Positions 16,518 through 61,982 of a DNA stretch of 64,000 nt are shown here, in pieces. This DNA comes from a virus (Duplodnaviria; Caudoviricetes). The stretch spans positions 1-64,000 of IMG/VR virus record IMGVR_UViG_3300028888_000085; one strand, written 5' to 3'. How positions within the stretch are numbered: the stretch's first letter is position 1; each line of letters opens with the position of its first letter. The notes beneath the pieces were generated by a model. That model searched no databases and had not been told where the DNA came from. It saw only the letters and a program-made list of their open reading frames with translations. The position numbers and the translations under genes are program-made.

Positions 16518-17543
16518 ATGCTTATCAGAAAACAAAATTCAACACGAAATAAACGAAACGAATCTGACGATACACAGCAGCCAAATCCACCTAAACGTGG
16601 ACGTACAAAAAATCGTATCGACCGGGAAAACTGGAAATCTGATGCGTTTCTTATTGAGCAGTTCCATGACATTGATGACCTTTATTTCGATGGGTATTTC
16701 AGACTTAACGGCTGGAAAGATGAATGGGTAAAGTATGACCGTATCGGTCTTGGTACGCTCGGATGTTTCAGCTACCTTCCTGTGTTTTCAGCGATGACCA
16801 GCCTTCGTGAAAATGGATGGGTAAATCAGAGTATCGGTTTCGTTTCAACAGGAATCTCAATCGGCAAAGATACTGTGTTCAACTCACTGCATGATTTACG
16901 TGACACATTGGCACACGAAATGTGTCATGCACTGACATTCATGCAGTACACCGACTTGCGTGAAATGCTCACAAGTAATCGTGAGGGTGGTCATGGTAAA
17001 CGATGGCGTGATAATGCCGACATCGTAAACCAGAAAAGCGTTGGAATTGACGACCTGAGTATTAAACGATTTGCAGACAACGAAAAAGCCATGTTCACTG
17101 TGTTTCAAACCGCACGCATGTCTGCTGAGTTTTGCTATTATTACATTGATGCTGATGAAAGCATGACGACCCTTAGGTTCTTCAGGACAAACAAACCTCA
17201 GGTTGGATTTGAGGATGCCTGGGATTTCATGCATGACGACCCAAAAGCAAAAGTCCAGTCGAAACTTCTTCTGGTTAAAGCATCTGACGCTTTTATCTCC
17301 GCCGCCGTTGGCTCAGGTTATGAAGACTTTATGGAGACTTTAAAAAATAAGTCTGTAGCCGGTAAATTCGTTTCAACTGCTGACCCATTTACAAGCGGTC
17401 AGTATGGAGCGTCAAAGGGTGTAAAACGTCTTTTGGACTTGTGCAGGAATGAGGACATGTCGTACATTCTTGACGGTAAAGTTGTCGAGCCTATCCAGAT
17501 ACTTGAAGAGTGGACGATTGAGCAGCTTCGTGATGAAGACTGA
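16518..17543 (+). CDS. SprT-like HExxH zinc metalloprotease with basic NES leader (putative head cargo)
   Basis: TLAHEMCH followed by GGHGKRW, the SprT pattern. Leader MLIRKQNSTRNKRNES. Confidence 0.75.
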   Translation: MLIRKQNSTRNKRNESDDTQQPNPPKRGRTKNRIDRENWKSDAFLIEQFHDIDDLYFDGYFRLNGWKDEWVKYDRIGLGTLGCFSYLPVFSAMTSLRENGWVNQSIGFVSTGISIGKDTVFNSLHDLRDTLAHEMCHALTFMQYTDLREMLTSNREGGHGKRWRDNADIVNQKSVGIDDLSIKRFADNEKAMFTVFQTARMSAEFCYYYIDADESMTTLRFFRTNKPQVGFEDAWDFMHDDPKAKVQSKLLLVKASDAFISAAVGSGYEDFMETLKNKSVAGKFVSTADPFTSGQYGASKGVKRLLDLCRNEDMSYILDGKVVEPIQILEEWTIEQLRDED

Positions 17544-17593
17544 TTCAGACTTTGTTAAAACAGTGTAAGACGTAAGCATGAAAGAGCAGTGTT

Positions 17594-18724
17594 ATGGCAG
17601 ATGTAGGCATTTTTCAGCGTTCAGAATATTCTTTCCGTGGCGGCACGTTCACATCGGATATGGGTGGTGCACGTGGTGTACTAACAGGTGTTGCGTTGTC
17701 CCTTATTGACCATGGATGGAATCTTGTCGGTACTTGGGATGAATCACTGGCGGTTCTGTCTGAGATTGCCTATATTCTGCTTGTGCATGACTCTGGTTTG
17801 AAAGCGTGCTTTGCAATGAATGTATCTGCTGTCCCTGAGTCGTTTATGACTTTCTGTCTTCCTGCATCGGTCGGCAAGGATGAGTGCGGGCAGACTCATC
17901 CAGGTCAGTATGCCGGTGGTCTTATGTGTTCTGTTGTGCCTCCGACGAGTTCAGAAAAGTTCGAGTTCATACGTGACGATGATGGCAAGGTGACCGGACT
18001 CAAAAAGCCGTTTCAAAGTACTCCGTTTGTCGGCACTGTCGGCGCACGTAATCGAATGGTAAAGTCTTTCTTAGACATTAACCGAACTGACGAATATTAT
18101 TCTTACATCGTTGTTTCTGATGGTTACACGGTATATGGGTTTTCACATAAGATGTCCGATGAAGAACATTTACGTGGATTCGCATGTGGTTCGCTTATGG
18201 GAGAACTTCTTTATCCAGACAGAGATACATCGTATTGTTCTAGGTATCTTGCTGTACGTCTCAGCCTGGATGCTGATGAGAATTATCCGCCCATTGACGA
18301 TTGCGGCATAGGTTCTGATGAGGACTTTGCTTTTCCGCTGCATACCAAACCCGGTGTTGCTTATGCAGCGTGCATGAATGCAAACAATAACATGAGTGTT
18401 TGGGTTCCTTGTCATTTGCATATTGATTCACATTATCTGAGTTTAAAGACGTATATCCCTGCTGTTTTAGGTAAAGACAGATTTGCCCGTATTGCTGTGT
18501 TCGCAGGGTATTCAGAGGAAGAGGCAGACCCTTACACATACAGAATTATGTGGGGCGATACGTTAAAGGGTTACCTTGATACAAAACGATTTGTGATGAC
18601 GACGCCAAATCACAGACCTGTCGGTACATGGTACAACAATAACAGTATGGTTCATGTCGGCGGCGGACTGCTTATCGGGTACACACAGGGCGGACCGTTG
18701 TTACCTGTCCGTTCAGAGGATTAA
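17594..18724 (+). CDS. Hypothetical (possibly virion) protein
   Basis: 376-aa ORF co-oriented with late genes. Confidence 0.7.
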   Translation: MADVGIFQRSEYSFRGGTFTSDMGGARGVLTGVALSLIDHGWNLVGTWDESLAVLSEIAYILLVHDSGLKACFAMNVSAVPESFMTFCLPASVGKDECGQTHPGQYAGGLMCSVVPPTSSEKFEFIRDDDGKVTGLKKPFQSTPFVGTVGARNRMVKSFLDINRTDEYYSYIVVSDGYTVYGFSHKMSDEEHLRGFACGSLMGELLYPDRDTSYCSRYLAVRLSLDADENYPPIDDCGIGSDEDFAFPLHTKPGVAYAACMNANNNMSVWVPCHLHIDSHYLSLKTYIPAVLGKDRFARIAVFAGYSEEEADPYTYRIMWGDTLKGYLDTKRFVMTTPNHRPVGTWYNNNSMVHVGGGLLIGYTQGGPLLPVRSED

Positions 18725-18795
18725 AAGCTCTTGTATATCGAACTTATCAGGCTTATCAGGCTTATGTCTCTTACCTTTTTTGGAGTTGTCGTGTT

Positions 18796-20514
18796 ATGAT
18801 AAGATTAAACAAATATAATCGTGTAAACAAACGGTACGAAAGCCATATCGGTACATACTGGATGACTGCAAAGGCAATCGCAACTGTGCTTCTGCGAGAT
18901 GGATGGGATGTGTTTTATCCCTCACGTCAGACGTTGGAACAGGTGTCGAAAGGTACGCAGGAAGATATTTCAAGCGTCTTGGGCAGCCATTTCACGTTTG
19001 TCTTTATGCGTTTGCAGCCGGACGGTAACATTCCACTGTATCCAACTCTGATTGTGCTGTCTGACAATCCGAACTCGACTCGTGAAGATGCGATGGAGCT
19101 TTTGGCTTCGCACATTGATGTAACAGCCGAAGACATTGAAATCGTGTGCTCGAACTTCTTTAAAGACGATGACGATGCCCGCATGTCAGACATCTTTGAT
19201 GAAATTCGTGTCGATGTAACGCCAGGAACAGGTCGCAATGACGAAACGGTTGATGTTCGTGAGTTCACCATTGCAGATAATGGAACTGTTAGAGAGTTGT
19301 CCATCTCTGCCATGCTTGAAGCTCTTGGAGCAAATGACAATGCGGATTATGACATCGTGTTTTCCAAACTGAAAATTACGTCTCCTGGACTCGTTCCTTT
19401 TAACTGGCAAGACCCAAAAGTAAATGCTCTGACAAAGAAGTTGCCCAAGTTTGGTCTGACTTCTGACGGCACTGTCACTGTGTCTCGGGAAATGTCATTA
19501 AAGGATATGATTTCTGTAATCACATTGCAGTTACGTGAATGGTGTCATCCACGTAATCATGCTGAAAATATGTGGTCTCGCCTGTGGGAATCTGTTGCTG
19601 TCGATTACATGTGTGAGCGTCCTGATGAGAATCTTGATTTCAATCCAATGACACGTGACGATTATGGTATGACTGACGATGAAATTGACTACGATTCGTT
19701 GTACGATGCCGTCACTGGAGAATCAAAACGTCGAACAGCCAAGCGTAGATTTGAAAAATATTCGCTTGTGTTCGGAAAGAACGAACTTCGCAAACTTCGT
19801 CCTGCTCTGAAAACCCGTGCGAATGAACGTATCATGGATACCAATTCAACCGTAAGCGACATTAAACAGGTGATGCTCGATTTCTTGAACTCAAGCGTCA
19901 TTATGAATGACTTCTTTGGGTTCAAAATTCCGTTTAACATGTGTGCAAAGGTTGATATCGAAACCAAGTCACATAACTATATCCTGTTTGGTTCGTATGC
20001 TTACACAAACGGGCACAGCGATGAAGAAATCCTGTGCATCCGTGTAAGCGTTCACGGCAATCATGTGTCTTTGTTCGATGTCTATGAGGACTATCAGATT
20101 GTTGAAGATACTCAGTCTCCTGCATCGAATTTGAGAGACTATTTGAACGGTAAAAAGTCATTGCTTGATAAGGGCAAGAAAGAGTCCAGAAATGTTCGTT
20201 CTTACAGAAGAAAGTACGAATCTTACTGTATTGCATACGATGAACTCATGCCAGCTCTCGTTGATTCGTTTAAACGAAATAAACGGCAGCATGGTGTAAA
20301 TTCCTCGTACACATGCTCCTACAAGATGTTGACAGACCATCGTGGTATCTTGACGATACGCAATTACTTGAAATTCGAGATTGATATTTGGGACCGTGTT
20401 GAGGTTCGGTATGCTGATACTCATCAGATGATGGGAATTTATGACATGGATGACTTTAACAGTGTTTCCGAACTTGCTGACAGTATCGTCATCGACATTT
20501 TCCGTACCATGTAA
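18796..20514 (+). CDS. Putative head-packaged polyprotein
   Basis: Leader ends NKRYES. Internal linkers GESKRRTAKRRFE and KGKKESRNVRSYRRKYES. Confidence 0.6.
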   Translation: MIRLNKYNRVNKRYESHIGTYWMTAKAIATVLLRDGWDVFYPSRQTLEQVSKGTQEDISSVLGSHFTFVFMRLQPDGNIPLYPTLIVLSDNPNSTREDAMELLASHIDVTAEDIEIVCSNFFKDDDDARMSDIFDEIRVDVTPGTGRNDETVDVREFTIADNGTVRELSISAMLEALGANDNADYDIVFSKLKITSPGLVPFNWQDPKVNALTKKLPKFGLTSDGTVTVSREMSLKDMISVITLQLREWCHPRNHAENMWSRLWESVAVDYMCERPDENLDFNPMTRDDYGMTDDEIDYDSLYDAVTGESKRRTAKRRFEKYSLVFGKNELRKLRPALKTRANERIMDTNSTVSDIKQVMLDFLNSSVIMNDFFGFKIPFNMCAKVDIETKSHNYILFGSYAYTNGHSDEEILCIRVSVHGNHVSLFDVYEDYQIVEDTQSPASNLRDYLNGKKSLLDKGKKESRNVRSYRRKYESYCIAYDELMPALVDSFKRNKRQHGVNSSYTCSYKMLTDHRGILTIRNYLKFEIDIWDRVEVRYADTHQMMGIYDMDDFNSVSELADSIVIDIFRTM

Positions 20515-20528: not shown

Positions 20529-21692
20529 ATGACTCTTTTTAAGCGTAACCGCTTCAAACGAATTAACGAACGTAATAAACGTGTTCTTAAAAACGAATCC
20601 ATTGCGGATGATACACACAATCTGTGGTATTCATTCGCAGAAGAGCTCGAAAAAGGAATGGAAGAGCAAGGTGTCTATGTCGATATCTGGCTCAACGATA
20701 TGGGTTTTATGGAAGTGACCGAAGTCAATGAAGGCACGACCTGTGTCATATACGCCAAAACTTATCAGGATGGCGGTTTCATGTCACAGCAGCTTATGAT
20801 TGAGCGAGAGGACGGCAGCTTCCTTCCTGGTGAGAAGTTCGACACTGGTGAAATGCCTGATGCAGACCTGGTTGTTCCTGAACTTCAATGGCTTGAACCT
20901 CAGTATGCTGATGAATGCAATCGCGGCAAACGACGTACACGCCGTGAGTCTGTACGTACCGATTATGATGGTGGGTTTACTGACACAATGAAAGCAGTCG
21001 ATGCGATGCTTACCAAATATTACGATGACGGTCAGGTCGAAATTACGGTTACCGATAATGGAACCGCTATTGTTACCGTGTTTCCTAAATCAGGTGAAGA
21101 CGAAAGCATCACAATTCAGCTTGATTATGCTAACGATAAAGCCACTTTGAAGGACGATAAAGGCAACAAAAAGACCGTCAGTGTAGATGTGGACAAGCCT
21201 GAGTTCGACAAACTGGGTGACGGTATTATCGGCCTTGTTGATGCACAGCTCGGTAAAGGCAAAAAAGAGTCACGAAGAATGCGTCGTAATGAAGCAAGCA
21301 TGGCTGACATTGCTGATGATAAGGCTGCACAGCGTTATGCAGAGGTTGACCCGAAACATTGTTCCAAAGATGAATTTATGTCTCGTCTTAAAGTTGGTGA
21401 CTTGTTTGTTGGTCATCGTTGGGGTACGACATCTTATTTCAAAGTGACTGGTTTCCGTGGCGGACGTGTCGTTCTTTCGTCTATCGGGAAAACCGCATCA
21501 GGAAAACTTGTGCCTGGTGTAAGTGAACCATTGTTTGCACCAGACCCCACTAAAGCAGGAAGTGAAAAAGGTGCACATGCACAGCCAATCAAGAGTTACA
21601 GTGGCTGTGAACTTACCAGTCGTGAATGGTCCTTCGACATGTGGGATGGAAAGTGGAATTTCCATGACATTAACGGTGCTTTGGGTTTCTAG
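20529..21692 (+). CDS. Putative head-packaged polyprotein (3 modules)
   Basis: Leader ends KRVLKNES. Linkers ECNRGKRRTRRES and KGKKESRRMRRNEAS. Confidence 0.6.
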   Translation: MTLFKRNRFKRINERNKRVLKNESIADDTHNLWYSFAEELEKGMEEQGVYVDIWLNDMGFMEVTEVNEGTTCVIYAKTYQDGGFMSQQLMIEREDGSFLPGEKFDTGEMPDADLVVPELQWLEPQYADECNRGKRRTRRESVRTDYDGGFTDTMKAVDAMLTKYYDDGQVEITVTDNGTAIVTVFPKSGEDESITIQLDYANDKATLKDDKGNKKTVSVDVDKPEFDKLGDGIIGLVDAQLGKGKKESRRMRRNEASMADIADDKAAQRYAEVDPKHCSKDEFMSRLKVGDLFVGHRWGTTSYFKVTGFRGGRVVLSSIGKTASGKLVPGVSEPLFAPDPTKAGSEKGAHAQPIKSYSGCELTSREWSFDMWDGKWNFHDINGALGF

Positions 21693-21717
21693 TACGAGAT
21701 ACCATTATAGTTTGCTT

Positions 21718-21759
21718 AAAAACAAAGCCACCTCGTAAATCCGAGGTGGCTTTGTTTTT
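21718..21759. terminator. Bidirectional intrinsic terminator; ends the CRISPR-omegaRNA transcript on the minus strand
   Basis: AAAAACAAAGCCACCTCG-TAAATC-CGAGGTGGCTTTGTTTTT. Confidence 0.85.
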
Positions 21760-21772
21760 GACAGGCATTCCT

Positions 21773-23289: not shown

Positions 23290-23305
23290 GGTTTGTTCCT
23301 TATGT

Positions 23306-23812: not shown

Positions 23813-23832
23813 TTACGTTTTCTCCTTTTACC

Positions 23833-24291: not shown

Positions 24292-24462
24292 GGTTCATGC
24301 TTGAAAGAAAATCCAGAAACTGCTTTGCATGAATGCAGATTATCAAGACGCAGCCATGCTTTACCGAAATGTACGGTATAAGTAACACTTTTTAATATCT
24401 AATGTTATGGAGACTTATGCGCAAGCATATTTATGCCATTTTCTTTTGTTATGGAGAAGACC

Positions 24463-25995
24463 ATGCCTGAACAGACACTTACGACGAAACGTCTTGTCAC
24501 GGAATCGCTCGTGAGCGAGATGCGGCGTGTTGACGAGAAAGGTTCTGGTGGTAAACCTTCAAATGCCTTGTGCATTGTGGAAGGCCCGTGCATGGAGTTC
24601 GGGAAGGTCAACCAGAACAACCGCATCTACTCACGAAAGCTGATTGAGGACAGGATAATCAATTATCCGCCGGTCAAAGAGGCCATTAAGAATAAGTGTA
24701 TGCTTGGCGAGGGTGGACATCCAGAAACACGTGTTGACATCGCATACCCTGAGGTTGCTTTGTCTGTGGAACGTATCTGGATTCCTGAGAACAGCGACCA
24801 TCTTGTTTTTGGCAGATTCGCTATTCTTGACACGCCGGTAGGACGTATTCTGAAAACGCTTATTGATTACGGCAGCAAAATCGGTATTTCCGCACGTGCT
24901 CTTGCTGAAAGTAAAATGGAAGGAAACACTGAGGTGATGTCGGAAACTGAGTACGACTTAATCACGTTCGATGCAGTTCCAGACCCTGGGTTTAAGTGCG
25001 CACATCTTGAAAAGGTGCAGGAAAACAAATCGCTTGAGTCTATGACGACAAACGAGCTGCGAAGTAATGTGGCTGCCCTGTCTGCATTAAAGATTCCTGC
25101 CTTTGAAAGCCGTATGCGTGATATGGCACAGGAACTTGAAAAACGCACAGATGATGCCGTTAATTCTGTTATCCGTAAGAGTAATGGTGTGAACGCACTT
25201 ACTCTGAACCGAAAGGATGAAACCAACCGTAACCCGAAAAAACTCAGTATTGAAGCTATTATGTCTTCGTCTGATAAAAGTACGGATGATTACGGTTCAT
25301 GTAAAGCCTTCGAGTCTGTATCGCACGAGTTTGCACAGGAAACAGACGGTATGCGTATAGCCCGTATGGAGCAGGATATTGATGCTTATCGTGAAACCAT
25401 TGAGACGCTCACTGAAAAGGTTGAAACTTTACAGGCAAATGAAGCGTTCTTGAAGCGTAGTAACGAAAGTTTGCGTTCCGGTATTGAGAAGGACATTTAT
25501 CAGGCACGTTACCTCGAACAGTATTCAGAGCTTGCATGTAAAGCCGAATCGCTGGCACGTAAACTTGACTCTCTCTACAAGCGTTCACAGTGTATCGTCA
25601 AACGTGTAAATGAGTCTTCTTTACAGAAAGTTTCCGTTAAGAAAACGGAGGAAGCTGTCGAATCTGTTTCGACGGGTAAGATTAGACGTACCCGTTTTGA
25701 CCATAAACAGATGAAGACGGAAGCTGTAAACAATAAAAAACAAAGTCATCGTGTGCCCGTAAGTGACCTTATGTCTGATGAAGGTAAAGGTTGTATTCAA
25801 GAGACAACACAGCGTCTATCGAAACGATACAGGATAGACGCTGACCGACTTACGGAGCTTGCGGATAACAATGCAGTAACTAAAGGAAACGGCAAGTCTT
25901 ACGAAAGACGTGTTCGCAGTATATCTAACTTTGAGCGTGATGTTCACGAAATAGCCCCTGCCCGAGGGGTGTTCCTTACCGGTAAAGGGAAATGA
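24463..25995 (+). CDS. Prohead core protease (T4 gp21-like) fused to a coiled-coil scaffold-like region
   Basis: NQNNRIYS, LGEGGHPE, LDTPVGRIL, GISARA and ITFDAVPDPG match gp21-family motifs. About 300 aa of helical C-terminal extension. Confidence 0.9.
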   Translation: MPEQTLTTKRLVTESLVSEMRRVDEKGSGGKPSNALCIVEGPCMEFGKVNQNNRIYSRKLIEDRIINYPPVKEAIKNKCMLGEGGHPETRVDIAYPEVALSVERIWIPENSDHLVFGRFAILDTPVGRILKTLIDYGSKIGISARALAESKMEGNTEVMSETEYDLITFDAVPDPGFKCAHLEKVQENKSLESMTTNELRSNVAALSALKIPAFESRMRDMAQELEKRTDDAVNSVIRKSNGVNALTLNRKDETNRNPKKLSIEAIMSSSDKSTDDYGSCKAFESVSHEFAQETDGMRIARMEQDIDAYRETIETLTEKVETLQANEAFLKRSNESLRSGIEKDIYQARYLEQYSELACKAESLARKLDSLYKRSQCIVKRVNESSLQKVSVKKTEEAVESVSTGKIRRTRFDHKQMKTEAVNNKKQSHRVPVSDLMSDEGKGCIQETTQRLSKRYRIDADRLTELADNNAVTKGNGKSYERRVRSISNFERDVHEIAPARGVFLTGKGK

Positions 25996-26008: not shown

Positions 26009-27466
26009 ATGGCAGTTTTGACTAAAGAAGATCGTAACATTCTCAAACGCAATTATGAATCCTACGTTAAGAAGGTCACTGATGTTCGTGGTAAACTTAC
26101 CCCGGCACAGGAAGACACCCTTCTTTTGACCTTCAACAACGCCGCCCGCGTTCTTGAAGAGGGTCAGAAACGTGTGAACGAAGGAATCATCCGCAGCGGT
26201 ATTTCGCAGCCGTCCGGAATTTCTTGGTTCCCCGAACACATGATTAACATGATTGCCAAGATGAGTGCTTCATCGATTATTGAAGACCTTATTTGGGTGC
26301 AGCCCATCGACAGTCCTCAGGGTCAGATTACTTTCTGGGAAATGACCTATGGTGACAGCCGTGGTGACAATCTCCAGGGCAATGTGATGATTAACGACAT
26401 GGGTGTTTCCATCAATCACACAAGCCGCAACCGTTTTGCTTCTGGTCGCATCTGTGGTGAACCCGCTACGCTCAAGAGCGGAAAAGTCGAATTGCATGTT
26501 GCACACATGCCGATGCTCATTGATGCAGACAACCAGATTATCTTCACGGATGCAGGTGATTCGAGCAAACGTTATGCACTTCGCAAAACCGGCACGAGCA
26601 CATGGGAACTTCGTGCTCTGGATGCTCAGGGTTATCCTATCGGCAGTGACCTTCTCAAGGCCAACACCATCGAAGTTAATCCGGACAGCGGTCTTGTGAT
26701 GTTCGAGTCCACGAATGAGGCTTTTGCCGCACTCTCCAGTGTGTTCGTTGATTACACTCAGGATTTGGGTTCTGCTCCTTCTCTGGCGGGTCGCCCTGTG
26801 TTCCGTATGAGAAACGAACCGATTCATGCTCTTCCGCACAAACTGCGTGTTGAGTATTCGTTCGATGCAGGTTACATGTATCAGAACAGTTTCGGTATTG
26901 ACCTTCAGAAGACCCTTATCGACAACTGCACGATGGAAATGAAACAGGAGCGTGACAATGAGGTTATTGACAACCTTCTGCGTCAGGCAGGAAACCATGT
27001 GATGTGGGACAGAACGAATACCAATTACATTTCACAGCGTGAACATGATGAGAGCTTCTGCGGACATCTTCAGGCTTGCTCCAATAAGATTTACCAGAAG
27101 AGCTACAAATTCCGTGGTAACTGGGCGGTTGTCGGTATTGAAGGTCTCAACGTTCTTATGAACATTGGTCGTCCTCGTTTCGAGCCGAACTATGTTGAGA
27201 ATCCTAACGGTCCATACGTTGCAGGTGTTCTTGACAATTCACTCAAGGTCATTTGTTCACCTTATATTCGTGAAAACGAGTACTTAGTAGGGCACAAAAG
27301 TATATTAGAGAACAGTTGTGCACTGCTCGCAGATTACCTCCCAATCATGCATACGGACTGGTTGACTAGAAATACGTTCACTGTTGAGTCTGGATTCATC
27401 AGCATGTGGGCTTATAAGATGCTCCGTCCTGAACTCCTCGTTCGTGGTGAAATCAAGGGTTATTAG
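26009..27466 (+). CDS. Major capsid protein (T4 gp23-like)
   Basis: DLIWVQPIDSPQGQITF and KLRVEYSFD...FGIDLQ...EMKQERDNEVI parallel gp23 motifs. Follows the protease; strong terminator downstream. Confidence 0.9.
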   Translation: MAVLTKEDRNILKRNYESYVKKVTDVRGKLTPAQEDTLLLTFNNAARVLEEGQKRVNEGIIRSGISQPSGISWFPEHMINMIAKMSASSIIEDLIWVQPIDSPQGQITFWEMTYGDSRGDNLQGNVMINDMGVSINHTSRNRFASGRICGEPATLKSGKVELHVAHMPMLIDADNQIIFTDAGDSSKRYALRKTGTSTWELRALDAQGYPIGSDLLKANTIEVNPDSGLVMFESTNEAFAALSSVFVDYTQDLGSAPSLAGRPVFRMRNEPIHALPHKLRVEYSFDAGYMYQNSFGIDLQKTLIDNCTMEMKQERDNEVIDNLLRQAGNHVMWDRTNTNYISQREHDESFCGHLQACSNKIYQKSYKFRGNWAVVGIEGLNVLMNIGRPRFEPNYVENPNGPYVAGVLDNSLKVICSPYIRENEYLVGHKSILENSCALLADYLPIMHTDWLTRNTFTVESGFISMWAYKMLRPELLVRGEIKGY

Positions 27467-32158: not shown

Positions 32159-33466
32159 ATGATACGAAGTAAAAAACGTCGTTATGAATCATTGAACAAT
32201 GACGATAAACGGAAAGCAGTAGCGAAGTTTTTTGGCATTAACCCATCTGAAATCGAAGTTGCTTCTGTGACTGGGTATGACGGCCCTGTGACACAGGCGA
32301 TAATTGGTGAGAATGAGTTCTGGATTCTTTCAGAGGATGAAGCCTATCGTGAAGCAACAGAATCGTTTTTAAACACAGGGTTTCGTGGTGCAGATATAGA
32401 ACGCGATTCTTATCTGAACATGGCTGCGCGTAATTGTCCGTTCGACCTTGATGCTGTTGCTGAGTATTACTGTGATTATATGAACGATGTAGACGATGAA
32501 GGCGACGAGCGTTCGTATGACGAGATTCGTGAAGACGAATATGCACTTGAACAGTGGGCTGAGGACACGTTTTCCATTGAAGACCTTTGGGATAATGATT
32601 TGATCGACAAAGAACAGTTCTGTAGCAATATCTGGGATATGGACGGTATTGGTATGGAACTCGACATGGAGCAGCGTACTGAAAGCACTGTTTTCAATGG
32701 TGAGACTCTTTACATTGTTTTGCGTGATGGTGAGTGGCCGGATGTCGCGAATGAAAGCAAGCGTCCTGCTGTCAAGGCAAGAAAGCGTCGTGTTGAAACC
32801 AAAACCCGCAAGGTGTGTTCAATTCCATGTATTCTGAAATCCAACAGACGGAGACATTTCGAGGATGCTACGGACGAACTTTCCGATGCCGTTGATGTTA
32901 TTGAAGGCAAGGACTCGTTTATTGCACGTGCTTTCAAATTTGAGGTTCGTCCGGCAAACAGCAATGGCATGATAAAGAATGGAAAGTTTGTCGGAAAGCT
33001 GTCTGCAAATCTGACGATGCGTTATGAAGGGGCTGAATGTTCTGTCTCCATTACAGATACCAAAGCGGAAATGACCGTCGATGAAATGCCGGATGTGACC
33101 ACTTCACTGTATGCCGTGACCGTACAGCTTCCGACAAATCGCCGTGATGTTCAAATTGAGCGTGAAGGTGATGGTTACGTTATTCACATTGCTGCCGATT
33201 GTAATGTGGACTGCCCTGAGACAATGAAATCGTTTAGTTCCCTTTGTTACTGTCATTTCACGTTCCATGTCACGAACAAACGAACTGTCGGTAAGATGTC
33301 TGCATGGATTCTTGAGGGTGTCGATGACAGGATGAAGAAACGTGGTAGTCGTAGAGGCCGTTCATCGCTTGCAGGTCTTGTTGATTTGGATATGTTCTCT
33401 GATGGAACTTCCTACGATGACATTGACTATGCCTTAAATTCAGGTGATTTCTCTTCGCTGTTTTAA
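32159..33466 (+). CDS. Putative head-packaged polyprotein (2 modules, the first highly acidic)
   Basis: Leader MIRSKKRRYES. Linker NESKRPAVKARKRRVE...SNRRRHFE. Confidence 0.6.
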   Translation: MIRSKKRRYESLNNDDKRKAVAKFFGINPSEIEVASVTGYDGPVTQAIIGENEFWILSEDEAYREATESFLNTGFRGADIERDSYLNMAARNCPFDLDAVAEYYCDYMNDVDDEGDERSYDEIREDEYALEQWAEDTFSIEDLWDNDLIDKEQFCSNIWDMDGIGMELDMEQRTESTVFNGETLYIVLRDGEWPDVANESKRPAVKARKRRVETKTRKVCSIPCILKSNRRRHFEDATDELSDAVDVIEGKDSFIARAFKFEVRPANSNGMIKNGKFVGKLSANLTMRYEGAECSVSITDTKAEMTVDEMPDVTTSLYAVTVQLPTNRRDVQIEREGDGYVIHIAADCNVDCPETMKSFSSLCYCHFTFHVTNKRTVGKMSAWILEGVDDRMKKRGSRRGRSSLAGLVDLDMFSDGTSYDDIDYALNSGDFSSLF

Positions 33467-34270: not shown

Positions 34271-37200
34271 ATGAAATTTAAAGAGTTCCTTGACTTTATT
34301 TACCGTGAGTTAAACGCACGCAAAATGGATTACTTCATGGACTGTGAGTATCAGTTCATCGTCTGTGAGGGAGAATCCAGTCGTGTAATTAAAAAACTCT
34401 CTCTGTCTCAAAGAGACTTTAACGCTCAGGACAAGGCATACAAGTCCTTTTTGAAATCCTTGGAAAAGACCGTTCGAGATGCACTCAATACGGGTATGTG
34501 GTCTGTGACGATGCGTGTTGCTATTGCGGACACGTTTAACGGTCGTGGCGGAAACTTAGGTTTCCTTGAGATGCAGAGTCCAAGAATGGCAGACTGGAAG
34601 GTCAGTGATTCGACAAAGAATTTCATTACGAAAGCATTGAACCAGATTGATGGCGGACGTGGAAGACGTGAGTGTGTCGTTAAAACGTTACGTGGCAAGA
34701 CTTTGAACAGAACACGTAATCGTAAAGTTGAACGTACTGCGTATAATTCTGATGACATGATGCGTGCATCGTACAACCTTGTTGACCAGATTAAGTCGTA
34801 TGCAAGAAAGCATCAGGGAATCAAGTTCTATCAGTGCAAGCCACGTGACATGGTGAAAGTCTATGATTACGAGCAGTCAAAGTATGTATGGATTGACTGT
34901 GTAGGGTTGGATTCGTCACATTACGGCGACCAACCTGTATTTTCAGACAGCCGTACAGGCATTGATTACACAAGGGATGATTTTAACCCTGCTGATGTGG
35001 TGAGACTGTGTGCAACATTCTCATCCATGCTTAGTGTCGGTGAAGGTCGAAACACGAAGTCCAGGACACGTTATCTGCATAAGACGTTAGAAGGTTTTAA
35101 CGATGGCGATGTTGAAGAAATTTACGATACGGACGCAAATGGTAATCAGACGTTAGTTGACCGTCGTGTTTATGGTATCAGCATCATGCCTGACCCAAAA
35201 GGAAACATCCCTCTCATTGAAGAGATTAAGAGCTATGTTCGATTCCTGAAAACAGGACAAGTTCCGCGTAAAAGTAATCTTGAACCATCATCCACATCGA
35301 AGCAGCGTCTCGCCGCATTGAAAGCTCAGTATGGTGATGACTGGAAATCGCATGTAAACAGTACGGATGTTGCACAGCCAAAGGATTCTGATTCGCTTAT
35401 CGTTACTGACTTCTCGAACAAGCGTGTTGCAATGGGTAATCTCAAGAAGCTGATGATTGCCGCTGTTAAGAACAATGTCATTTCTCAGGAAGAGCTTCTT
35501 GAGATTTTGCACCCTCTGAATGATAACGATACTGCGGATTCGGTTCGTATGTCGATTCTTCGTGATAATCCGGAATTGGCGGATATTCTGCCGGTTGTGT
35601 TTGGTGACATCGACACGAAAGAACTTGAGCATGGCGTAGGCTCGCACGCTCATGGAATGGACTTTGATGACCTCTTGGATGACCCTTCCAAACACGATGC
35701 GGCTGCACGTATTACCGGTGATTCTCCGAAAGACCCGGAAACAGGAAAACGTGCAAGAACAGGCGGACCTGGAAAGCGTCTTGATTGGGAACAATCTTCT
35801 TACCGTGCAATCGCTGAACAAGAAGCGAATGCATACATTTCAATGCTTACGGATGTAACCGGCGGCAAAGGCTCAACTAAGGTTGTTGGTCGTGAAGAAG
35901 CTCTGAACAAACAGGATGCGACTGACATGATTATTGCCATTCAGTCTGACTTCCAAGGCAAGGGTTCAAAAGCAACGGGACGCAATTTTGCTGATGCCTG
36001 GATGGGTGACCCGTCACGTGAGGATTACGGCTTTGATACTGAACATGCTGTTTATGGTGGTATCTCTGTGTCGTTCGGTGGTTTTGCCCGGCGTGAACCT
36101 GAGATAGGCAAGAGCGGTAAACCGTTACGTGGCGGAAAGGTAAGTTACAATGTCAGTGGTCGTGGTGCTAATGCACCTGACTGGAGTTGTTCATTAAGCA
36201 TTAAAATTGCTGCTCCGTATGTCGGCAGTCTTGATGACCCACAGGCAGAGCATGACCTCATTCCGTTCTGTGTCTCTGTAAGTCTTGGACAGATGAATGG
36301 TGTTCAGAGTGTTGGTCGTAAGAAACTCGAAGAGCATATTGACCGTGTGTTCTCAGGTCTGGTCAAAACCCGTGGTCGTGCTTATGGATGTTCCCTCGTG
36401 GATAACGTGTATAATGCGACTGCTATGTGCCGTGAAGTCGATGCCGACAAACAAGTGGAAGGGCTGAAATTCCTTACCCGTTGTGCATGTGCTGCCTTCG
36501 GTGAGTGTATTGACCTTGTTGATGGAATCGACATTGACGATTCTGCAAGCATTCGTAATATGGTTAATGTGAACGTGTTCGAGAGCCGCACACGTAAATC
36601 TTTACGTAACAGTAACAGTAAAAGACGTAATGAAGCTATGGTATACAGCAGAGATGAGGATTACCCAATTCAGGAGTTGATTGAATGGGTAAACATGAAT
36701 GGAGTCCCTTCCATTGAGTCAGAAATAACTGCTTCTGATGTACGTGATTTCAGAGAGCTTTGCGCAGATGGGTGGGTAAAGTTGAATGACAATTACATTC
36801 AGCAGCTTCTTCGTGACATGAGCTATATTAAGAAGCATACCACATCTCGCCGTCAGTTCCTTACTCCATCGGAGAAAAAAGAACTGCGTGATGATATGGA
36901 AGAGTTGTTCGATGCCTTTGAGCGGTTTGACGATTCCATTGTGGATGACCCCGTTGCCATCTTTATCCGTGATAATGCGAACCGTGGCGGAAATGGAAGT
37001 GAGATGCCTTACTACCTTGAGTCGAGTATTCGCAACTGCCGTAACTGGGTTCAGGATAACAAGAAAGATAATGAAGAACTGTCGTTCTATGCGACAGATA
37101 TTCTTGACTGTCTTGACCAGATTGAGGATTCTTTTAATGAAAAACATTATTCCTGCGATGCTTCTCGCTTAGGGTATGGCGATGCTTCTTTTGAGATTAA

Positions 37201-37528
37201 AGATGATTCGTCACTTCCAAAGTATTTGGACATTCTCAAAGGTCGTGGAAAAGTGTCGATGCAGGACTTTGAAGAGATGTATGAAGAAGTTGAGCGTATA
37301 GACGGTACTGTCGAGGCTATGTTTGATTTAGACCTTGAGCAGATAGATTCACTTGAGGAATCTTTATCCATTGATTCTGACCTTGAAGGTCTGTTCAAAG
37401 ATTTGCGTGATTTATGGCTAAAGGTGATTGATGCCATAGATGGATTCCCCGGACATCTTCAAAACAATTTAAGATTCTCGTGGGAAAGCGTTAATCGAAA
37501 CAGCATAAGACGTAAGATGAATATCTAA
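34271..37528 (+). CDS. Large putative head-packaged polyprotein (4 or more modules)
   Basis: Starts MKFKEF. Linkers GRRE...RNRKVE, GEGRNTKSR...KTLE and FESRTRKSLRNSNSKRRNE. Tail WESVNRNSIRRKMNI. Confidence 0.6.
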   Translation: MKFKEFLDFIYRELNARKMDYFMDCEYQFIVCEGESSRVIKKLSLSQRDFNAQDKAYKSFLKSLEKTVRDALNTGMWSVTMRVAIADTFNGRGGNLGFLEMQSPRMADWKVSDSTKNFITKALNQIDGGRGRRECVVKTLRGKTLNRTRNRKVERTAYNSDDMMRASYNLVDQIKSYARKHQGIKFYQCKPRDMVKVYDYEQSKYVWIDCVGLDSSHYGDQPVFSDSRTGIDYTRDDFNPADVVRLCATFSSMLSVGEGRNTKSRTRYLHKTLEGFNDGDVEEIYDTDANGNQTLVDRRVYGISIMPDPKGNIPLIEEIKSYVRFLKTGQVPRKSNLEPSSTSKQRLAALKAQYGDDWKSHVNSTDVAQPKDSDSLIVTDFSNKRVAMGNLKKLMIAAVKNNVISQEELLEILHPLNDNDTADSVRMSILRDNPELADILPVVFGDIDTKELEHGVGSHAHGMDFDDLLDDPSKHDAAARITGDSPKDPETGKRARTGGPGKRLDWEQSSYRAIAEQEANAYISMLTDVTGGKGSTKVVGREEALNKQDATDMIIAIQSDFQGKGSKATGRNFADAWMGDPSREDYGFDTEHAVYGGISVSFGGFARREPEIGKSGKPLRGGKVSYNVSGRGANAPDWSCSLSIKIAAPYVGSLDDPQAEHDLIPFCVSVSLGQMNGVQSVGRKKLEEHIDRVFSGLVKTRGRAYGCSLVDNVYNATAMCREVDADKQVEGLKFLTRCACAAFGECIDLVDGIDIDDSASIRNMVNVNVFESRTRKSLRNSNSKRRNEAMVYSRDEDYPIQELIEWVNMNGVPSIESEITASDVRDFRELCADGWVKLNDNYIQQLLRDMSYIKKHTTSRRQFLTPSEKKELRDDMEELFDAFERFDDSIVDDPVAIFIRDNANRGGNGSEMPYYLESSIRNCRNWVQDNKKDNEELSFYATDILDCLDQIEDSFNEKHYSCDASRLGYGDASFEIKDDSSLPKYLDILKGRGKVSMQDFEEMYEEVERIDGTVEAMFDLDLEQIDSLEESLSIDSDLEGLFKDLRDLWLKVIDAIDGFPGHLQNNLRFSWESVNRNSIRRKMNI

Positions 37529-40128: not shown

Positions 40129-41232
40129 ATGCTTCGTACAGACAAACGAAACTTATTGCTTCGTAAGGAAGCATTAGGTGTCAAGTCAACAAATGTTCCT
40201 GATGTTCAGAATTTCAAGCATCTGGTGAAGCTCGCATGGAAGTTCCGTGATAAATCAGTTCAGGAGTTTTCTGACTGGTTGGAAAATAATCTCGTTGGTT
40301 TCGATGCTTATGATTATATGTATGCCATGGCTGCTTTCGGATGCCTTAACGACCAAAAACGTGTCGATGTGTGGGATGCTTTGTTCGCAGTTGTGGAACA
40401 ATTATTCGGAAAGTCTTCACCGGAATATAAGTTTGCCCTTGAAACGTATTATACGGATGCTTCGCCATGTTCCAGCCGTAAAGACGTAATACAGCACTGT
40501 CTTTACGTGTACTGGCATGACACACCTGTTGCTGTTGCCATAAGGAAAATGTGCAAAGACTCAAGCTCTTACAGAGGTCAACTCACTTATGACGATGCTT
40601 ACCCTGTTATTGCAGTATGTCGAGATACTAAAGTGAAAGGCAATGGTAATCTCTATTCCAGTTATGCTTCTGATATGGAAAAATGGTTTGAAGAGATGTT
40701 TGGTCAGAAGCAAGAGAGTCATTGTATTACACGTAAGCGTTCTACCGAGGCATCCATTCGGTTTGGAAGTGATTTGTGGCAGCAGACTGAACATATCGTG
40801 AACAAGGCCGTCCGGGATGTCATGTTTTCACATCCTCTTTGTAAGGATAGCCGTTTCAAGGTCACGGACATTGAAATTTATGCAGATGACGAACATTGGG
40901 TTGAAGGAAGCGGCGGAACGGTCGATTTTTGTGTTCAGTTTTTCAAGTCTGATTTGTTTGCTGTTGACATGGAAGTCTCGTTCTGTCCAAAAGGCGTTAT
41001 CGACGGTGAATTTCGTTGTGATTACGAAGTGATTTTGAACGATGATTCAAAAGTTCGTGTGCGTCCATACAGAGTCGAAAAGGACTTCACTGTTGACTAT
41101 AAACCAACACAGAGTTCTGCTTTTACGTACCTTTCCAATTACTTGTATGACAGCCTGAAAGAGATGATGTTTGAAGCTCTTGAGCATTTGGCTGAGGGAC
41201 TCGAAATGAAAGGCATTTTGATGAACCGTTAA
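40129..41232 (+). CDS. Putative head-packaged polyprotein (2 modules)
   Basis: AGGAG RBS. Leader MLRTDKRNLLLRKEA. Linker QESHCITRKRSTEAS. Confidence 0.55.
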   Translation: MLRTDKRNLLLRKEALGVKSTNVPDVQNFKHLVKLAWKFRDKSVQEFSDWLENNLVGFDAYDYMYAMAAFGCLNDQKRVDVWDALFAVVEQLFGKSSPEYKFALETYYTDASPCSSRKDVIQHCLYVYWHDTPVAVAIRKMCKDSSSYRGQLTYDDAYPVIAVCRDTKVKGNGNLYSSYASDMEKWFEEMFGQKQESHCITRKRSTEASIRFGSDLWQQTEHIVNKAVRDVMFSHPLCKDSRFKVTDIEIYADDEHWVEGSGGTVDFCVQFFKSDLFAVDMEVSFCPKGVIDGEFRCDYEVILNDDSKVRVRPYRVEKDFTVDYKPTQSSAFTYLSNYLYDSLKEMMFEALEHLAEGLEMKGILMNR

Positions 41233-42545: not shown

Positions 42546-42866
42546 ATGAGATTTGCAGTCAGGAATCCATACGACAACGGTTATGCCGGTGTTCTTGTTC
42601 AACGTGTTCTGGCACAGGGTCTTCTGTGTTTTATGCAGCTGTCAAAAATGGAACTTCGTAAATCAAAATTAAGGGAGTGTGACAGTGTTTTGCGCAGCAT
42701 TGCGTATGACGAGGTACGGCATGAGTTTTACTTCAAGCAGGACATTCGATTCAGACAGATGTATTACAACGACACCGTGCCGGTGCTGCGGTCGTGGGTA
42801 TCGTCATTTTTGCAGTATATAACGGTTTCGCCTTTGGTTGGAAATCTCAGGAGGTTTGGGTTATGA
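42546..42866 (+). CDS. Hypothetical protein
   Basis: 106 aa; its stop overlaps the next start (ATGA). Confidence 0.55.
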   Translation: MRFAVRNPYDNGYAGVLVQRVLAQGLLCFMQLSKMELRKSKLRECDSVLRSIAYDEVRHEFYFKQDIRFRQMYYNDTVPVLRSWVSSFLQYITVSPLVGNLRRFGL

Positions 42867-43450
42867 TTAAGAGCAGTAAAGACAGTCAGAAGAAAACACG
42901 TTACGAGCATCTTTCGTCCACAAAGAAAGGTTGTGTAAAGAAACTTCGTTGTGAGGGTGCTAATGAAAACAAGCGTACTACGTATGGATGCATCAATCCA
43001 GAGGACGCTGAGTATTGCGACGTACTTTATCAGGTAGGTATTTGGCCTGGTGCTGGGTATTTTCTTGATACGATGCTCGTATGGGGCGGAAAGTCCATCG
43101 AAGAAGTTCTCGAAACCGCTGTCGGGTGGTGTGAAGATAACGCTCCACACTTGCTTGTTTCCGATGAGGACGTTTACGATATTCAGGGTGATTATGTCCG
43201 TGATGCTATTCTTGACGACCCTGAAAAATTCGGCTTTACACCTGAAGATGTTGAAAGCGTCAAAGACATGAGCATGGATGAAATCTGTAACCGTATTGGC
43301 GGTGATGATGTTTGGTACGATTTGTGTGATGAAGCACTTGAGGCATACGACATTCTGTACGTTGACCCACAGCTTTACGTTCGTGGAGAAAATCTCCGTA
43401 TCGAAGAGGTTGACCCTGCTGACTATCCTGATGACGGTGTTCGTCCTTAG
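42863..43450 (+). CDS. Acidic protein with basic leader (putative head cargo)
   Basis: AGGAGG RBS. MIKSSKDSQKKTRYE...KKLRCEG followed by an acidic body. Confidence 0.6.
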   Translation: MIKSSKDSQKKTRYEHLSSTKKGCVKKLRCEGANENKRTTYGCINPEDAEYCDVLYQVGIWPGAGYFLDTMLVWGGKSIEEVLETAVGWCEDNAPHLLVSDEDVYDIQGDYVRDAILDDPEKFGFTPEDVESVKDMSMDEICNRIGGDDVWYDLCDEALEAYDILYVDPQLYVRGENLRIEEVDPADYPDDGVRP

Positions 43451-47018: not shown

Positions 47019-48164
47019 ATGCTTATTAAACGAGAGCATAAAAATAGTGTACAGCGTAATGTGCAGCGTATGTCGGTACGGCGTGATGAGAAGAATGAGA
47101 TTTCTGACTCTCTGATTGAAGCAGAAGACCGAAAAGAGTTCGACATCCTGTGCAAAACAATGGGTGCAACAGATGAAGACCTTGCTGTCGAAGCAAGAAC
47201 AAAGGACATCATTATCGGTCGTATCAGCAGTTCTCTTGAAATGAAGCGTTCGTTGATGTTTGATGTTATGAACACAACTGTTGATAAGGACAAGAAAGAA
47301 AAAGTCTTAACGTATCACATTAAAGTGTCGAAAGGCGACCTTGCTGATAGCTGCCTTAAATCCCTTGAGAAAGGTTGTTTAATTTGCATTGAGGGTGCTC
47401 TTACTGGAGACACAATGAAAGCGTCACGTATTTGCTTCCTCGGCAAACGAAAATCTGAATCGCTTCGCCTTATCAGCATGAAAATGAAGTCTGAGAAAGT
47501 GCATAAGGTTTCTTCTATCTGCAAAGCATCGGCAAATGAAGATGACCATCCGATTTACAAGGTGTCGTGTATTACTCGTGAGCATTCAGCGACACGTAAG
47601 AAGTACAGCGGTGAGTTTGACTCGCTTCAGGATGCCATGAAAGTTTGCGCACAGGCTTACAATGCAGGAGTTGATGTCTGTGTCGAATGCGGTGACCAAC
47701 CTTTCGCAAAGATTTACACCAAAACGAAAGAGTTTGAAGACTTTACGGATGATTCAAGTGCCACGAGTGCTTTTCGTGAAGCTATGATGTGGTCGAAGTC
47801 GCCTGAAAGACGAAAGAAAGATGAAGAAGAAATCAGCACCCAGGTTCCTGATGTGAACTCTCTTGCGGAAATGATTCCTGACAATTCGGTTATTCCTGAT
47901 GGTGATGAGATTCATTTCTCTGAATCTGATGGTAAAAGCGAATGTGATACGGACAAAGATGCCAAGAAAGAAACTGCATCGGATGTCAACCCTGACATCC
48001 TGTCGCAGGAATCGAATAACGAAGACCCGAACGACATTCGCATTTATGCTAAGAATCATCAGATGACTGTTATGACTGAAGCTCATGTAAACGGTGTCAA
48101 ACTTACACGCATGTGCCCTGGTGTTTCAGGTAAGTTTAACGGACGCAACCGTCTGAAACAGTAA
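47019..48164 (+). CDS. Modular protein with an SSB-like OB-fold domain and basic Glu-bounded linkers
   Basis: IIIGRI...GDLADSCLKSLEKGCLICIEGAL...ASRICFL matches the SSB pattern. Leader MLIKRE...RRDE; linker RKSES...KMKSE. Confidence 0.55.
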   Translation: MLIKREHKNSVQRNVQRMSVRRDEKNEISDSLIEAEDRKEFDILCKTMGATDEDLAVEARTKDIIIGRISSSLEMKRSLMFDVMNTTVDKDKKEKVLTYHIKVSKGDLADSCLKSLEKGCLICIEGALTGDTMKASRICFLGKRKSESLRLISMKMKSEKVHKVSSICKASANEDDHPIYKVSCITREHSATRKKYSGEFDSLQDAMKVCAQAYNAGVDVCVECGDQPFAKIYTKTKEFEDFTDDSSATSAFREAMMWSKSPERRKKDEEEISTQVPDVNSLAEMIPDNSVIPDGDEIHFSESDGKSECDTDKDAKKETASDVNPDILSQESNNEDPNDIRIYAKNHQMTVMTEAHVNGVKLTRMCPGVSGKFNGRNRLKQ

Positions 48165-53736: not shown

Positions 53737-53893
53737 TTCTTGGAACATTTCGTAGTCGTCATCAAAAATTTTTGTGGTTTGTACAAGGGTAATTGTCCAG
53801 TAGCCTGTTTTCTAACAAATCTTAACTTTTTTTAACTTTTACACTTGATTTCCTTTGCAATGTGACTATACTCCATACTCAAGGAGGCGGCTT

Positions 53894-58125: not shown

Positions 58126-58171
58126 AGGTTTCGACCATGATGAGCGAGGTGTTCATGTCAACCGGAAGTCT

Positions 58172-60560: not shown

Positions 60561-60941
60561 ATGGCTACATTCACAAGCAAAAAAGAAATTGTCACGAAAC
60601 TCAAAACACAAATTTCCGAGAAGGATGAAACTGCGATTCATGCACTGTTATTCGTTTATGCGTATCAGGAAGCATCGGAGCAGGACAATTCTGTTACGTC
60701 GTTTAATAATGGCGTAGGATTTAATAAGCATGATGCAGAGTTCTGTACCAGTCTTGTGAACCAATATAACGAACGCGGTTCGTTTTCACGCAAGCAGCTT
60801 GAATGCATCAAGCGTGTGATGCAGAAGTATGCCGGTCAAATCGTCGAAATAAAACTTGGAAATGGCGACATAGTGAAGAATGGTCGTGTTTACACATGGA
60901 CTGCAAATGGAGTAAACTATGAGACAGCTATCCCCGCTTGA
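60561..60941 (+). CDS. Phage hypothetical protein
   Basis: TAAGGAG RBS. Motif NGVGFNKHDA...SRKQ. Confidence 0.75.
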   Translation: MATFTSKKEIVTKLKTQISEKDETAIHALLFVYAYQEASEQDNSVTSFNNGVGFNKHDAEFCTSLVNQYNERGSFSRKQLECIKRVMQKYAGQIVEIKLGNGDIVKNGRVYTWTANGVNYETAIPA

Positions 60942-61476
60942 ATACAGACGTTTTATCGTATGGACGTTTCCGACAGTCATCGACATGCTTTCCGTTCTTG
61001 ATAACCGATGGGTTGCTGTTGAACATGACACTTATTCTGAACGCATTACATCGAGAGTGGAGAAACGTAAAGGCAAGGACGTGACGTGTTATGGCGTAAA
61101 ACCGTTAGACAAACGTGTATTTCTCGAAGCAATCGACAAGGACGGTTTTATTCCGTTCATCGGTCATCTCATTCAAACGTTATATGAGCTTACGCCAGAA
61201 AATACAGATTCAACTGAACTGTATAGTGATGCACATGAAGCGATTTCGGCTCTTCCTGATGCACCTGATTTGCCAGAATCAAGCGACCCAGATGAAATTT
61301 CTCGATGCATAAGTGCTATGCGTTATGTCCTCGGCATGGGGTTTGGCAATCTTGAAAAGTTCAACAAGATTTGCGTTTACCTTGCAAAGGTTTCGATTGA
61401 GATGCTTTTTTGGTATCTTTACCCTTCACAGACGCTTTCTTATGGCAAAGTTGTCGATAACGATGAATCACACTGA
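60919..61476 (+). CDS. Hypothetical protein
   Basis: 185-aa ORF overlapping the upstream gene. Confidence 0.6.
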   Translation: MRQLSPLEYRRFIVWTFPTVIDMLSVLDNRWVAVEHDTYSERITSRVEKRKGKDVTCYGVKPLDKRVFLEAIDKDGFIPFIGHLIQTLYELTPENTDSTELYSDAHEAISALPDAPDLPESSDPDEISRCISAMRYVLGMGFGNLEKFNKICVYLAKVSIEMLFWYLYPSQTLSYGKVVDNDESH

Positions 61477-61493
61477 CAGATTAAAGGATAACA

Positions 61494-61982
61494 ATGATGC
61501 TTATTAAGAAACAAAGGGCATACAGAAGCAGACGACGTGCTTTTGAGATGGCACTGGACAAAGCAAAGTTTCAGGCTGTTGTGTCAGATCATTCCGAACA
61601 AGTGTTGCAGAGCTGGTGTCTGATGGAATATTGCCGTTGTTATCGTCACGATCTCGCAGACACCTATGAGCATTGGCGTACAGAGCTTGAGACACAGCTC
61701 AACACCATTGCACGAAAACTCGTAAAGGGCGACAAGCTCAAATGGACGAAACAGGTGATGATTGACGAGGAAGAGTTTGATCGTGTAGAGAATGTGTTTA
61801 ATGCTTGTCGCGTCAAATTCAGACATGAAAACAGAGATGGCTTAGGAATTACAGACAAGGAACAGCATACGGTTTGCATTCATTGTGCTGATGAAATATA
61901 CGACATCATAGAGTGCATGGCATCACAAGACATCACCATTTACACTGACAGGCGGTTTCCACCTATGGAAACACTTGCATAA
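61494..61982 (+). CDS. Hypothetical protein with basic leader (putative head cargo)
   Basis: Leader MMLIKKQRAYRSRRRAFE then MAL. Confidence 0.6.
   Translation: MMLIKKQRAYRSRRRAFEMALDKAKFQAVVSDHSEQVLQSWCLMEYCRCYRHDLADTYEHWRTELETQLNTIARKLVKGDKLKWTKQVMIDEEEFDRVENVFNACRVKFRHENRDGLGITDKEQHTVCIHCADEIYDIIECMASQDITIYTDRRFPPMETLA

Follow-up and report, generated by a model that had tools for sequence, protein, structure and literature searches.

Basic, glutamate-ended peptides in head-linked proteins of an uncultured giant phage: candidate position-independent propeptides of a T4-type prohead protease

The IMG/VR virus record IMGVR_UViG_3300028888_000085 (Duplodnaviria; Caudoviricetes) is a 98.6-kb fragment whose first 64 kb (positions 1 to 64,000, the window) encode a prohead protease of the T4 gp21 family, a gp23-type capsid protein and, near these head genes, about nine genes whose protein modules are preceded, joined or followed by short Lys/Arg-rich peptides ending in Glu (here called tags). 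These peptides are probably propeptides of the T4 style that are cut by the head protease, forming a tag that does not depend on position and that links exchangeable proteins of the head interior, most of them acidic. CheckV estimates a completeness of 38%, which puts the whole genome at ~260 kb, and the source is best read as a giant phage with a T4-type head. Its major capsid protein has relatives on contigs of 179, 252 and 314 kb, and one weak candidate cargo protein, the 47019 product, has a homologue on a 227.6-kb IMG/VR contig. When 50,697 phage records were searched by megablast with the DNA of the protease and capsid genes, no match was returned; by protein, the nearest cultured phages are Bacillus vB_BceM-HSE3 and Listeria LIS04, with a capsid identity of only ~25%.

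The tagged open reading frames (ORFs) lie on the plus strand and are named here by their first position; a slash in a peptide marks the predicted cut. Each ORF with a leader has a Shine-Dalgarno sequence 6-10 nt 5′ of its ATG. The leaders are 10-24 residues long and end in E/S or E/A in six ORFs and in E/H, E/K or E/M in three more. They carry a charge of +3 to +7 with an isoelectric point (pI) of 10-12, leaders and linkers overall range from +3 to +12, and the modules are acidic (pI 4.1-5.4). A secretion signal was ruled out as the identity of the leaders, which have no hydrophobic core. The leader peptides quoted for these ORFs in a preliminary description of the window are all present, and the leader Glu is conserved among cargo homologues.

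The 16518 ORF (16518..17543) encodes a leader (16518-16562, RNKRNE15/S) followed by a 326-aa acidic protein with a SprT-like zinc protease domain (HEMCH; Pfam PF10263, 35.7 bits against a cut-off of 25.6) that is the single domain behind the leader. A SprT-like gene occupies the same position in relatives L002, L005 and L008, and the L008 orthologue begins MINRIYES. In the 18796 ORF (18796..20514) a leader (18796-18840, NKRYE15/S) precedes a large module, a linker (20185-20220, KKE463/S...RKYE475/S) and a 97-aa C-terminal module, D; its orthologues retain ..E/SH at the leader end. The 20529 ORF (20529..21692) is a predicted three-module polyprotein in which the leader (20529-20597, LKNE23/S) is followed by modules A, B and C, joined by linkers at 20913-20948 (A/B, RTRRE140/S) and 21270-21293 (B/C, KKE247/S RRMRRNE255/A). 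The leader Glu of this family, E23, is invariant and is one of five invariant columns in alignment A2. The 38428 ORF (38428..39636) has the same plan, with a leader at 38428-38469 (FCNE14/S), modules M1, M2 and M3, and linkers at 38803-38826 (M1/M2, SIE125/S RKRKRNE133/S) and 39223-39258 (M2/M3, FRKE265/A ... RKFE277/S). Two modules are predicted for the 32159 ORF (32159..33466): behind its leader (32159-32188, KRRYE10/S) an acidic module with a net charge of -37 is joined to a 200-aa module by a basic linker of 36 aa (32756-32863, ANE199/S ... RRHFE235/D). The 1085-aa product of the 34271 ORF (34271..37528) is without an N-terminal leader and carries a linker with sites at both ends (36584-36634, VFE771/S RTRKSLRNSNSKRRNE788/A) before a 297-aa acidic C-terminal module. 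The earlier claim that the leader signal recurs as internal linkers thus holds for the 18796, 20529, 38428, 34271 and 32159 ORFs.

Other members are less certain. The 40129 ORF (40129..41232), for which relatives were sought and none found, is a candidate with a leader at 40129-40170 (LLRKE14/A) and a possible weak linker at 40717-40749 (KQE196/S ... STE207/A). The 42863 ORF (42863..43450; leader 42863-42907, KTRYE15/H) is a weak candidate whose product past the leader is a very acidic protein of 180 aa (pI 4.1), and the 47019 ORF (47019..48164), between the sheath and tube genes, is a weak candidate with a basic leader at 47019-47090 (VRRDE24/K); a 50%-identical homologue retains a basic leader ending RRHLE/K and does not retain the internal KSE147/S. 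The 61494 ORF (61494..61982) is a doubtful member: it lies outside the head and tail module, its basic N-terminus ends RRAFE18/M, and no homologue evidence was found for it. The residue after Glu in the 42863, 47019 and 61494 products is His, Lys and Met, respectively, and not Ser, Ala or Gly. The 34271 and 61494 ORFs are assigned from sequence, and the 40129 and 42863 ORFs from sequence together with their Shine-Dalgarno sites. The 42863, 47019 and 61494 ORFs, the internal site of the 40129 product and the capsid KRNYES site discussed below are weak members of the set. The preliminary estimate of roughly 20 released products comes to 19 on recount, a figure that includes weak sites. Searches of the cargo modules with Pfam and PHROGs gave nothing except the SprT-like domain and one PHROG of unknown function.

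The protease (24433..25995, plus strand) is assigned by Pfam, PHROG and structural matches. It scores 47.7 bits against PF03420 (S77; cut-off 27) and more weakly, 29 bits, against PF20034 (S80), it belongs to PHROG 207 (E 1.3e-37), and it matches the T4 gp21 structure 5JBL (E 5.6e-4), in which the His and Ser of the query stand opposite two Ala of the crystallised chain. Its gene adjoins the PF07068 capsid gene. The true start is probably Met11 (24463) and not 24433: this third ATG has its own GGAGA Shine-Dalgarno sequence and agrees with the N-termini of relatives. Cut sites are predicted at LVTE24/S, AFE225/S (at the end of the protease domain), AFE294/S, SNE345/S, KAE372/S, VNE394/S and AVE410/S. 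The N-terminal LV[TS]E/S site, with E24-S25, and the AFE/SR site at the end of the catalytic domain (F224-E225-S226-R227) are invariant in five relatives. In T4, gp21 has an N-terminal LIE-9 motif and is also processed at its C-terminus, and SPN3US gp245 undergoes C-terminal autocleavage (PMC9026906, PMC5694885); the two conserved sites of the present protease parallel the T4 LIE-9 motif and the C-terminal (auto)cleavage of T4 and SPN3US. The C-terminal extension of ~295 aa (25108-25995) contains six further xxE/S sites and a conserved basic tail (ERRIRSISNFERDVH..GVFLTGKGK in relatives), and may form a scaffold-like region that would be cleaved into short fragments. The protease of Bacillus phage vB_BceM-HSE3 (L009 10242-11921) likewise has a long C-terminal coiled-coil extension, strongly acidic in that phage, which suggests that a protease-scaffold fusion is a trait common to this distant T4-like branch.

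The major capsid protein (26009..27466, plus strand) is of the gp23 type (PF07068, 87 bits, with the match starting at residue 76). Its predicted maturation cut, VNE58/G (codon 26180-26182), lies 18 residues before the start of the Pfam Gp23 match, where T4 gp23 is matured. None of 15 homologues, some as low as 34% in identity, departs from E58, and the usual context is N-E-[GSNAD]. An upstream site, NYE17/S within KRNYES, is not conserved, being KRNYNS in a 76%-identical homologue. The proposal that the capsid protein and protease carry the signal too was therefore borne out for the presence of capsid E17 and E58 and protease E24, and not for the conservation of KRNYES, whereas the fibre-like, neck, sheath and tube N-termini are without the signal, as had been described (neck/adaptor-like gene, 33581-34267; sheath, 43900-46884; tube, 48182-48778). 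The protease and capsid cut sites have no basic character, so the enzyme seems to need little beyond Glu and a small residue in an exposed stretch. Few determinants beyond Glu have likewise been reported for the 201phi2-1 protease (PMC9026906), and the proteases of T4, phiKZ, 201phi2-1 and SPN3US all cut after Glu with few other determinants (PMC9026906, PMC5694885).

A motif scan, as called for in the preliminary description, found the pattern [KR]x0-1[NYF]E[SA] 29 times as against 7.8 in residue shuffles (z 7.3), an enrichment of about fourfold, with the matches concentrated in ORFs between 16.5 and 39.6 kb. Basic-E-[SAG] sites occur at the N-terminus of 10 of 99 ORFs, as against 2.3 expected (P ~1e-4). 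There are five basic linkers with a site at both ends, that of the 34271 ORF among them, as against 0.93 expected; all five are in ORFs of the head module, and none of 500 shuffles reached that number. The ratio of Glu to Asp at basic sites is 20:6 in head and cargo ORFs and 16:12 elsewhere, though Asp is commoner overall, and it is 69:9 in cargo homologues (P 1.5e-15, the sequences not being independent). Asp is thus no substitute for Glu at the tag ends, a comparison that acts as a built-in control. T4 uses propeptides of 10-20 aa to load proteins into the head, and processing is blocked when the last position of the capsid-targeting sequence (CTS), residue 10, where cleavage occurs, is Asp (PMC9026906, PMC5694885). 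Plain tripeptides are weakly enriched (NES genome-wide, 16 against 7.6, rank 113), so the signal lies in the basic context and not in the tripeptide; a simple tripeptide code was rejected, as unbiased tripeptide enrichment singles out neither NES nor YES. A hand count of 25 predicted sites gives Lys or Arg at position P3 in 14, the rest having V, A, N, S, C or H. The Leu/Ile at P3 of the T4 cleavage logo was not found, with no enrichment of [LIV]xE[SAG], and the phiKZ-like [SAG]xE is not enriched either (z -0.6).

Comparison with relatives shows that the modules are shuffled between genes. Homologues of the 20529 product (leader-A-linker-B-linker-C) have the arrangements X-A-B-C, A'-C, X-B-D, X-A-tail, X-B-tail and B-D', and a 179-kb relative splits A and B+D' between two genes, both of which start with a leader. 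Module D, the C-terminal module of the 18796 product, stands behind a different module in P0032. In the 32159 family the second module is found behind three other N-terminal partners and, in P0048, directly behind a leader, and the 38428 family includes M1-M3, M1 alone with a basic tail, leader-M3, M4-M3, M1-M4-M3, M1-M5-M4 and M4-M6-M3. Across these three families modules are always joined at a basic linker, and the tag is found at the N-terminus, inside the chain and at the C-terminus, which means that these positions have been interchangeable in evolution. The ends of BLAST alignment blocks coincide with linkers in all four ORFs that have partial homologues; in the 32159 ORF they fall at residues 172-245. 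Against the near-identical relative L005, DNA identity along the 18796 ORF drops from ~95% to ~55% exactly at the linker start, which marks a recombination breakpoint. Two KGKKES linkers differ at synonymous positions, so constraint acts on the peptide. Leaders of a capsid lineage with 43% identity read MVKLRRVNE/A and MLKLKRVQE/A, and Bacillus phage HSE3 has MYE/S, IVE/S and a basic leader ending INE/S. BLASTP among the cargo ORFs of the window found no paralogy at E 0.01; in pairwise comparison, there is a weak match (E 8e-4) between module C of the 20529 product and M3 of the 38428 product, and a marginal one (E 0.041) between modules A and B of the former.

AlphaFold2 models place the tags outside the predicted domains. 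In the 20529 product (mean predicted local distance difference test score, pLDDT, 52.6), pLDDT is below 50 at residues 1-29, 126-148 and 244-282, which correspond to the leader and both linkers. In the 38428 product (mean pLDDT 66.3), M1 is modelled at ~80 and M3 at 85-95, and the linker regions 127-146 and 233-275 fall below 50. The linkers are therefore low-confidence segments between predicted domains and not inside folded ones, which was the outcome that the preliminary description had expected of such models; the refuting case that it named, linkers within folded domains, was not seen. Modules A and B of the 20529 product (20598-21272) are modelled with an identical topology of helix, five strands and helix, and M2 of the 38428 product is predicted as helix, four strands and helix; repeated duplication of one small fold may therefore have contributed to the set of cargo modules. 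Foldseek searches of the 38428 model against the PDB found nothing at E ≤0.001, and ESM Atlas gave no usable match. The best hits of a wide VIA-align search reached Z 7.7, within the stated noise, and its rows (T4 MotA C-terminal domain, PsiB, the TraI translocation-signal domain and AcrIIA11) were not used as evidence.

The closest known system is that of the T4 internal proteins (IPI, IPII, IPIII, Alt, gp67 and gp68) with their CTS and gp21 (MEROPS S77). The present phage resembles it in the protease family and gp23-type capsid, in short Glu-ended N-terminal propeptides on otherwise unrelated proteins (PMC9026906), in propeptides at either end, as in Alt and gp21, and in cargo sets that vary between relatives (PMC9026906). 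It differs in that P3 is Leu or Ile in T4 and here mostly Lys or Arg in the cargo tags and variable in the capsid protein and protease, and in that the T4 CTS is described as N-terminal and not basic, whereas the tags here are basic and also internal. Moreover, T4 cargo proteins are single chains, several of them basic, in contrast to the acidic modules found here, many in polyproteins with internal tags for which two cuts are predicted.

The phiKZ-like giants (phiKZ gp175, 201phi2-1 and SPN3US gp245; S80) also have many head-internal proteins, which are trimmed after Glu there, multiple redundant propeptide sites and a protease that cuts its own C-terminus (PMC5694885, PMC10052503, PMC9026906). 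Unlike the tags described here, their motif is S/A/G-x-E or A-x-E and their propeptides often exceed 100 aa; in SPN3US all propeptides are N-terminal except the protease's own (PMC10052503), and the present protease scores best as S77. A third point of comparison is provided by polyvalent proteins (Iyer, Burroughs, Anand, de Souza and Aravind 2017), which are strings of unrelated modules encoded among virion genes, are predicted to be packaged and delivered with the DNA, and frequently include a zincin (SprT-like/MPTase) domain (PMC5512222). They differ in being large chains, without a defined joint, of enzymatic domains that can be recognised, and any processing proposed for them is by their own MPTase (PMC5512222), whereas here the modules are small and unannotated, the joint is a defined basic peptide ending in Glu, and the SprT-like domain stands alone behind a leader. 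The window has multi-module chains in a virion context, and Pfam and PHROGs recognise a known domain in one single-domain module only. A literature search found no paper on protease-delimited polyproteins in phage heads and no shuffled-module polyproteins for phiKZ-like phages, and what is new relative to the T4 CTS and jumbo-phage propeptides is, on the best reading, that the tag is basic, is not tied to one position and also strings modules together as polyproteins.

A 617-aa HNH endonuclease-like ORF (27659-29512, plus strand; PHROG 374, E 1.2e-27) lies directly 3′ of the capsid gene and is likely a homing endonuclease; at its position relatives have ORFs of 583-831 aa, two of which have its N-terminal cysteine-rich pattern. 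A transposase-like ORF (53855-55534, plus strand; PHROG 506, E 4.8e-53) lies within the tail module, and in relative L004 genes of the IS605 OrfB/TnpB type (7536-8768 and 11791-13101) flank the protease and capsid genes. The structural operon appears to have been invaded repeatedly by mobile RNA-guided nuclease genes. A minus-strand block (21705-24291) separates the cargo genes from the protease gene, and relatives have unrelated plus-strand genes at this position (450-, 460- and 378-aa products), for which a search of the present genome found no homologue. The stretch 5′ of the protease gene is hypervariable.

Cleavage, targeting, virion residence and injection are what we infer from these observations. 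Under the proposed mechanism the S77 prohead protease would cut after Glu and before a small residue. Precursors, including polyproteins with two or three modules, would be built into the prohead core, and the protease would then remove their leaders and linkers. As many of the linkers are bounded by two sites, a basic peptide of 8-36 residues would be excised. The freed modules would remain in the head as internal proteins able to leave with the DNA. As the capsid and protease sites lack a basic stretch, this stretch is not needed for recognition by the protease and is probably a loading or packing signal, one that would be effective anywhere in the chain. Portability of the tag would also let recombination at the tag-coding sequence shuffle modules between genes.

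An account in which the basic peptides are not cut at all and serve as flexible linkers and tails, perhaps binding DNA, in multidomain virion proteins that travel whole, as polyvalent proteins can, is unlikely. Polyvalent proteins are multidomain products of genes among virion genes, often have a zincin/MPTase domain and are in some cases transferred unprocessed (PMC5512222); a SprT-like domain is present in the window, and Lys/Arg-rich segments would bind DNA. This account leaves unexplained that the tag always ends in Glu and not Asp, that the same pattern of Glu and a small residue is seen at the maturation site of the capsid protein and where the protease domain ends, and that tags stand at the very N-terminus, where there is nothing to link. 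Cutting of the linkers by another enzyme, whether the SprT-like metalloprotease of the 16518 ORF acting in the head or after injection or a host protease, is quite improbable, given that Glu at P1 is a hallmark of S77/S80 proteases and not of SprT-type enzymes, and that the capsid protein and the protease itself have sites of this type; in favour of another enzyme, MPTase domains have been proposed to process polyvalent proteins before or after delivery (Iyer et al., PMC5512222), and the SprT-like gene is kept at its position in three relatives. The tags would be very improbable as recombination scars or cassette junctions kept at the DNA level, or as a chance pattern in proteins rich in Lys/Arg and Glu. 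The coincidence of breakpoints with linkers fits such an origin, as does the weak enrichment of single tripeptides for a motif defined post hoc, but linker DNA varies synonymously while the peptide is kept, leaders diverge yet stay basic with a terminal Glu down to 43%-identity lineages and a cultured Bacillus phage, and both the enrichment and the Glu/Asp asymmetry are beyond chance.

Several points nevertheless weigh against the reading of the tags as propeptides cut by the head protease. The fourfold enrichment was obtained with a pattern chosen post hoc from the data, and residue shuffling is a lenient null where basic residues cluster. Some listed sites carry Lys, His, Met or Asp after the Glu. 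The AlphaFold2 models are weak, with low means from shallow alignments, and low confidence is not proof of disorder. The T4 portal family was not found in the 98.6-kb fragment, from which much of the genome is missing too. A functional hint comes from one module alone, the SprT-like one, so that 'effectors' is a guess. The C-terminal extension of the protease is not acidic, with a net charge of about +8 (summed over segments), so a simple pull of basic tags to an acidic scaffold is unsupported; such a scaffold was rejected as the partner of the tags here, though the extension is acidic in Bacillus phage HSE3. Of the modular cleavable code set out in the preliminary description, the S77 protease beside a gp23-type capsid gene, the conserved Glu and the interchangeable leaders and linkers stand, with cleavage, targeting by the basic stretch and injected effectors as its predicted parts.

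A broader and more tentative possibility, which we regard as rather doubtful, combines the position-independent loading tag with charge: the alternation of basic tags and acidic modules would make the precursors condense into the prohead core, the excised peptides would stay as counter-ions of the packaged DNA, like the Mu and pVII peptides of adenovirus, and the acidic modules would be expelled with the DNA. Some of the acidic modules may be DNA mimics that block host defences. Were this combined reading true, the tag and the charge of its cargo would form a portable two-part code to load any protein into a phage head and release it, and effectors would be delivered in fixed ratios from one polyprotein.

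Of all phage products, the proteins carried inside the head arrive first in a new host, and the head cargo of T4 includes an anti-restriction protein and an enzyme that rewires the host RNA polymerase. A position-independent tag for loading and release would help to package foreign proteins into the capsids of phages, a purpose for which the T4 CTS has already been used. If the tags are indeed cleavable propeptides of head cargo, they would provide a sequence rule for spotting such cargo in metagenomic phages and would explain the fast turnover of cargo genes between relatives, and giant phages of the gut and rumen that form a large uncultured lineage would assemble their first-strike set from swappable modules joined by one simple tag.

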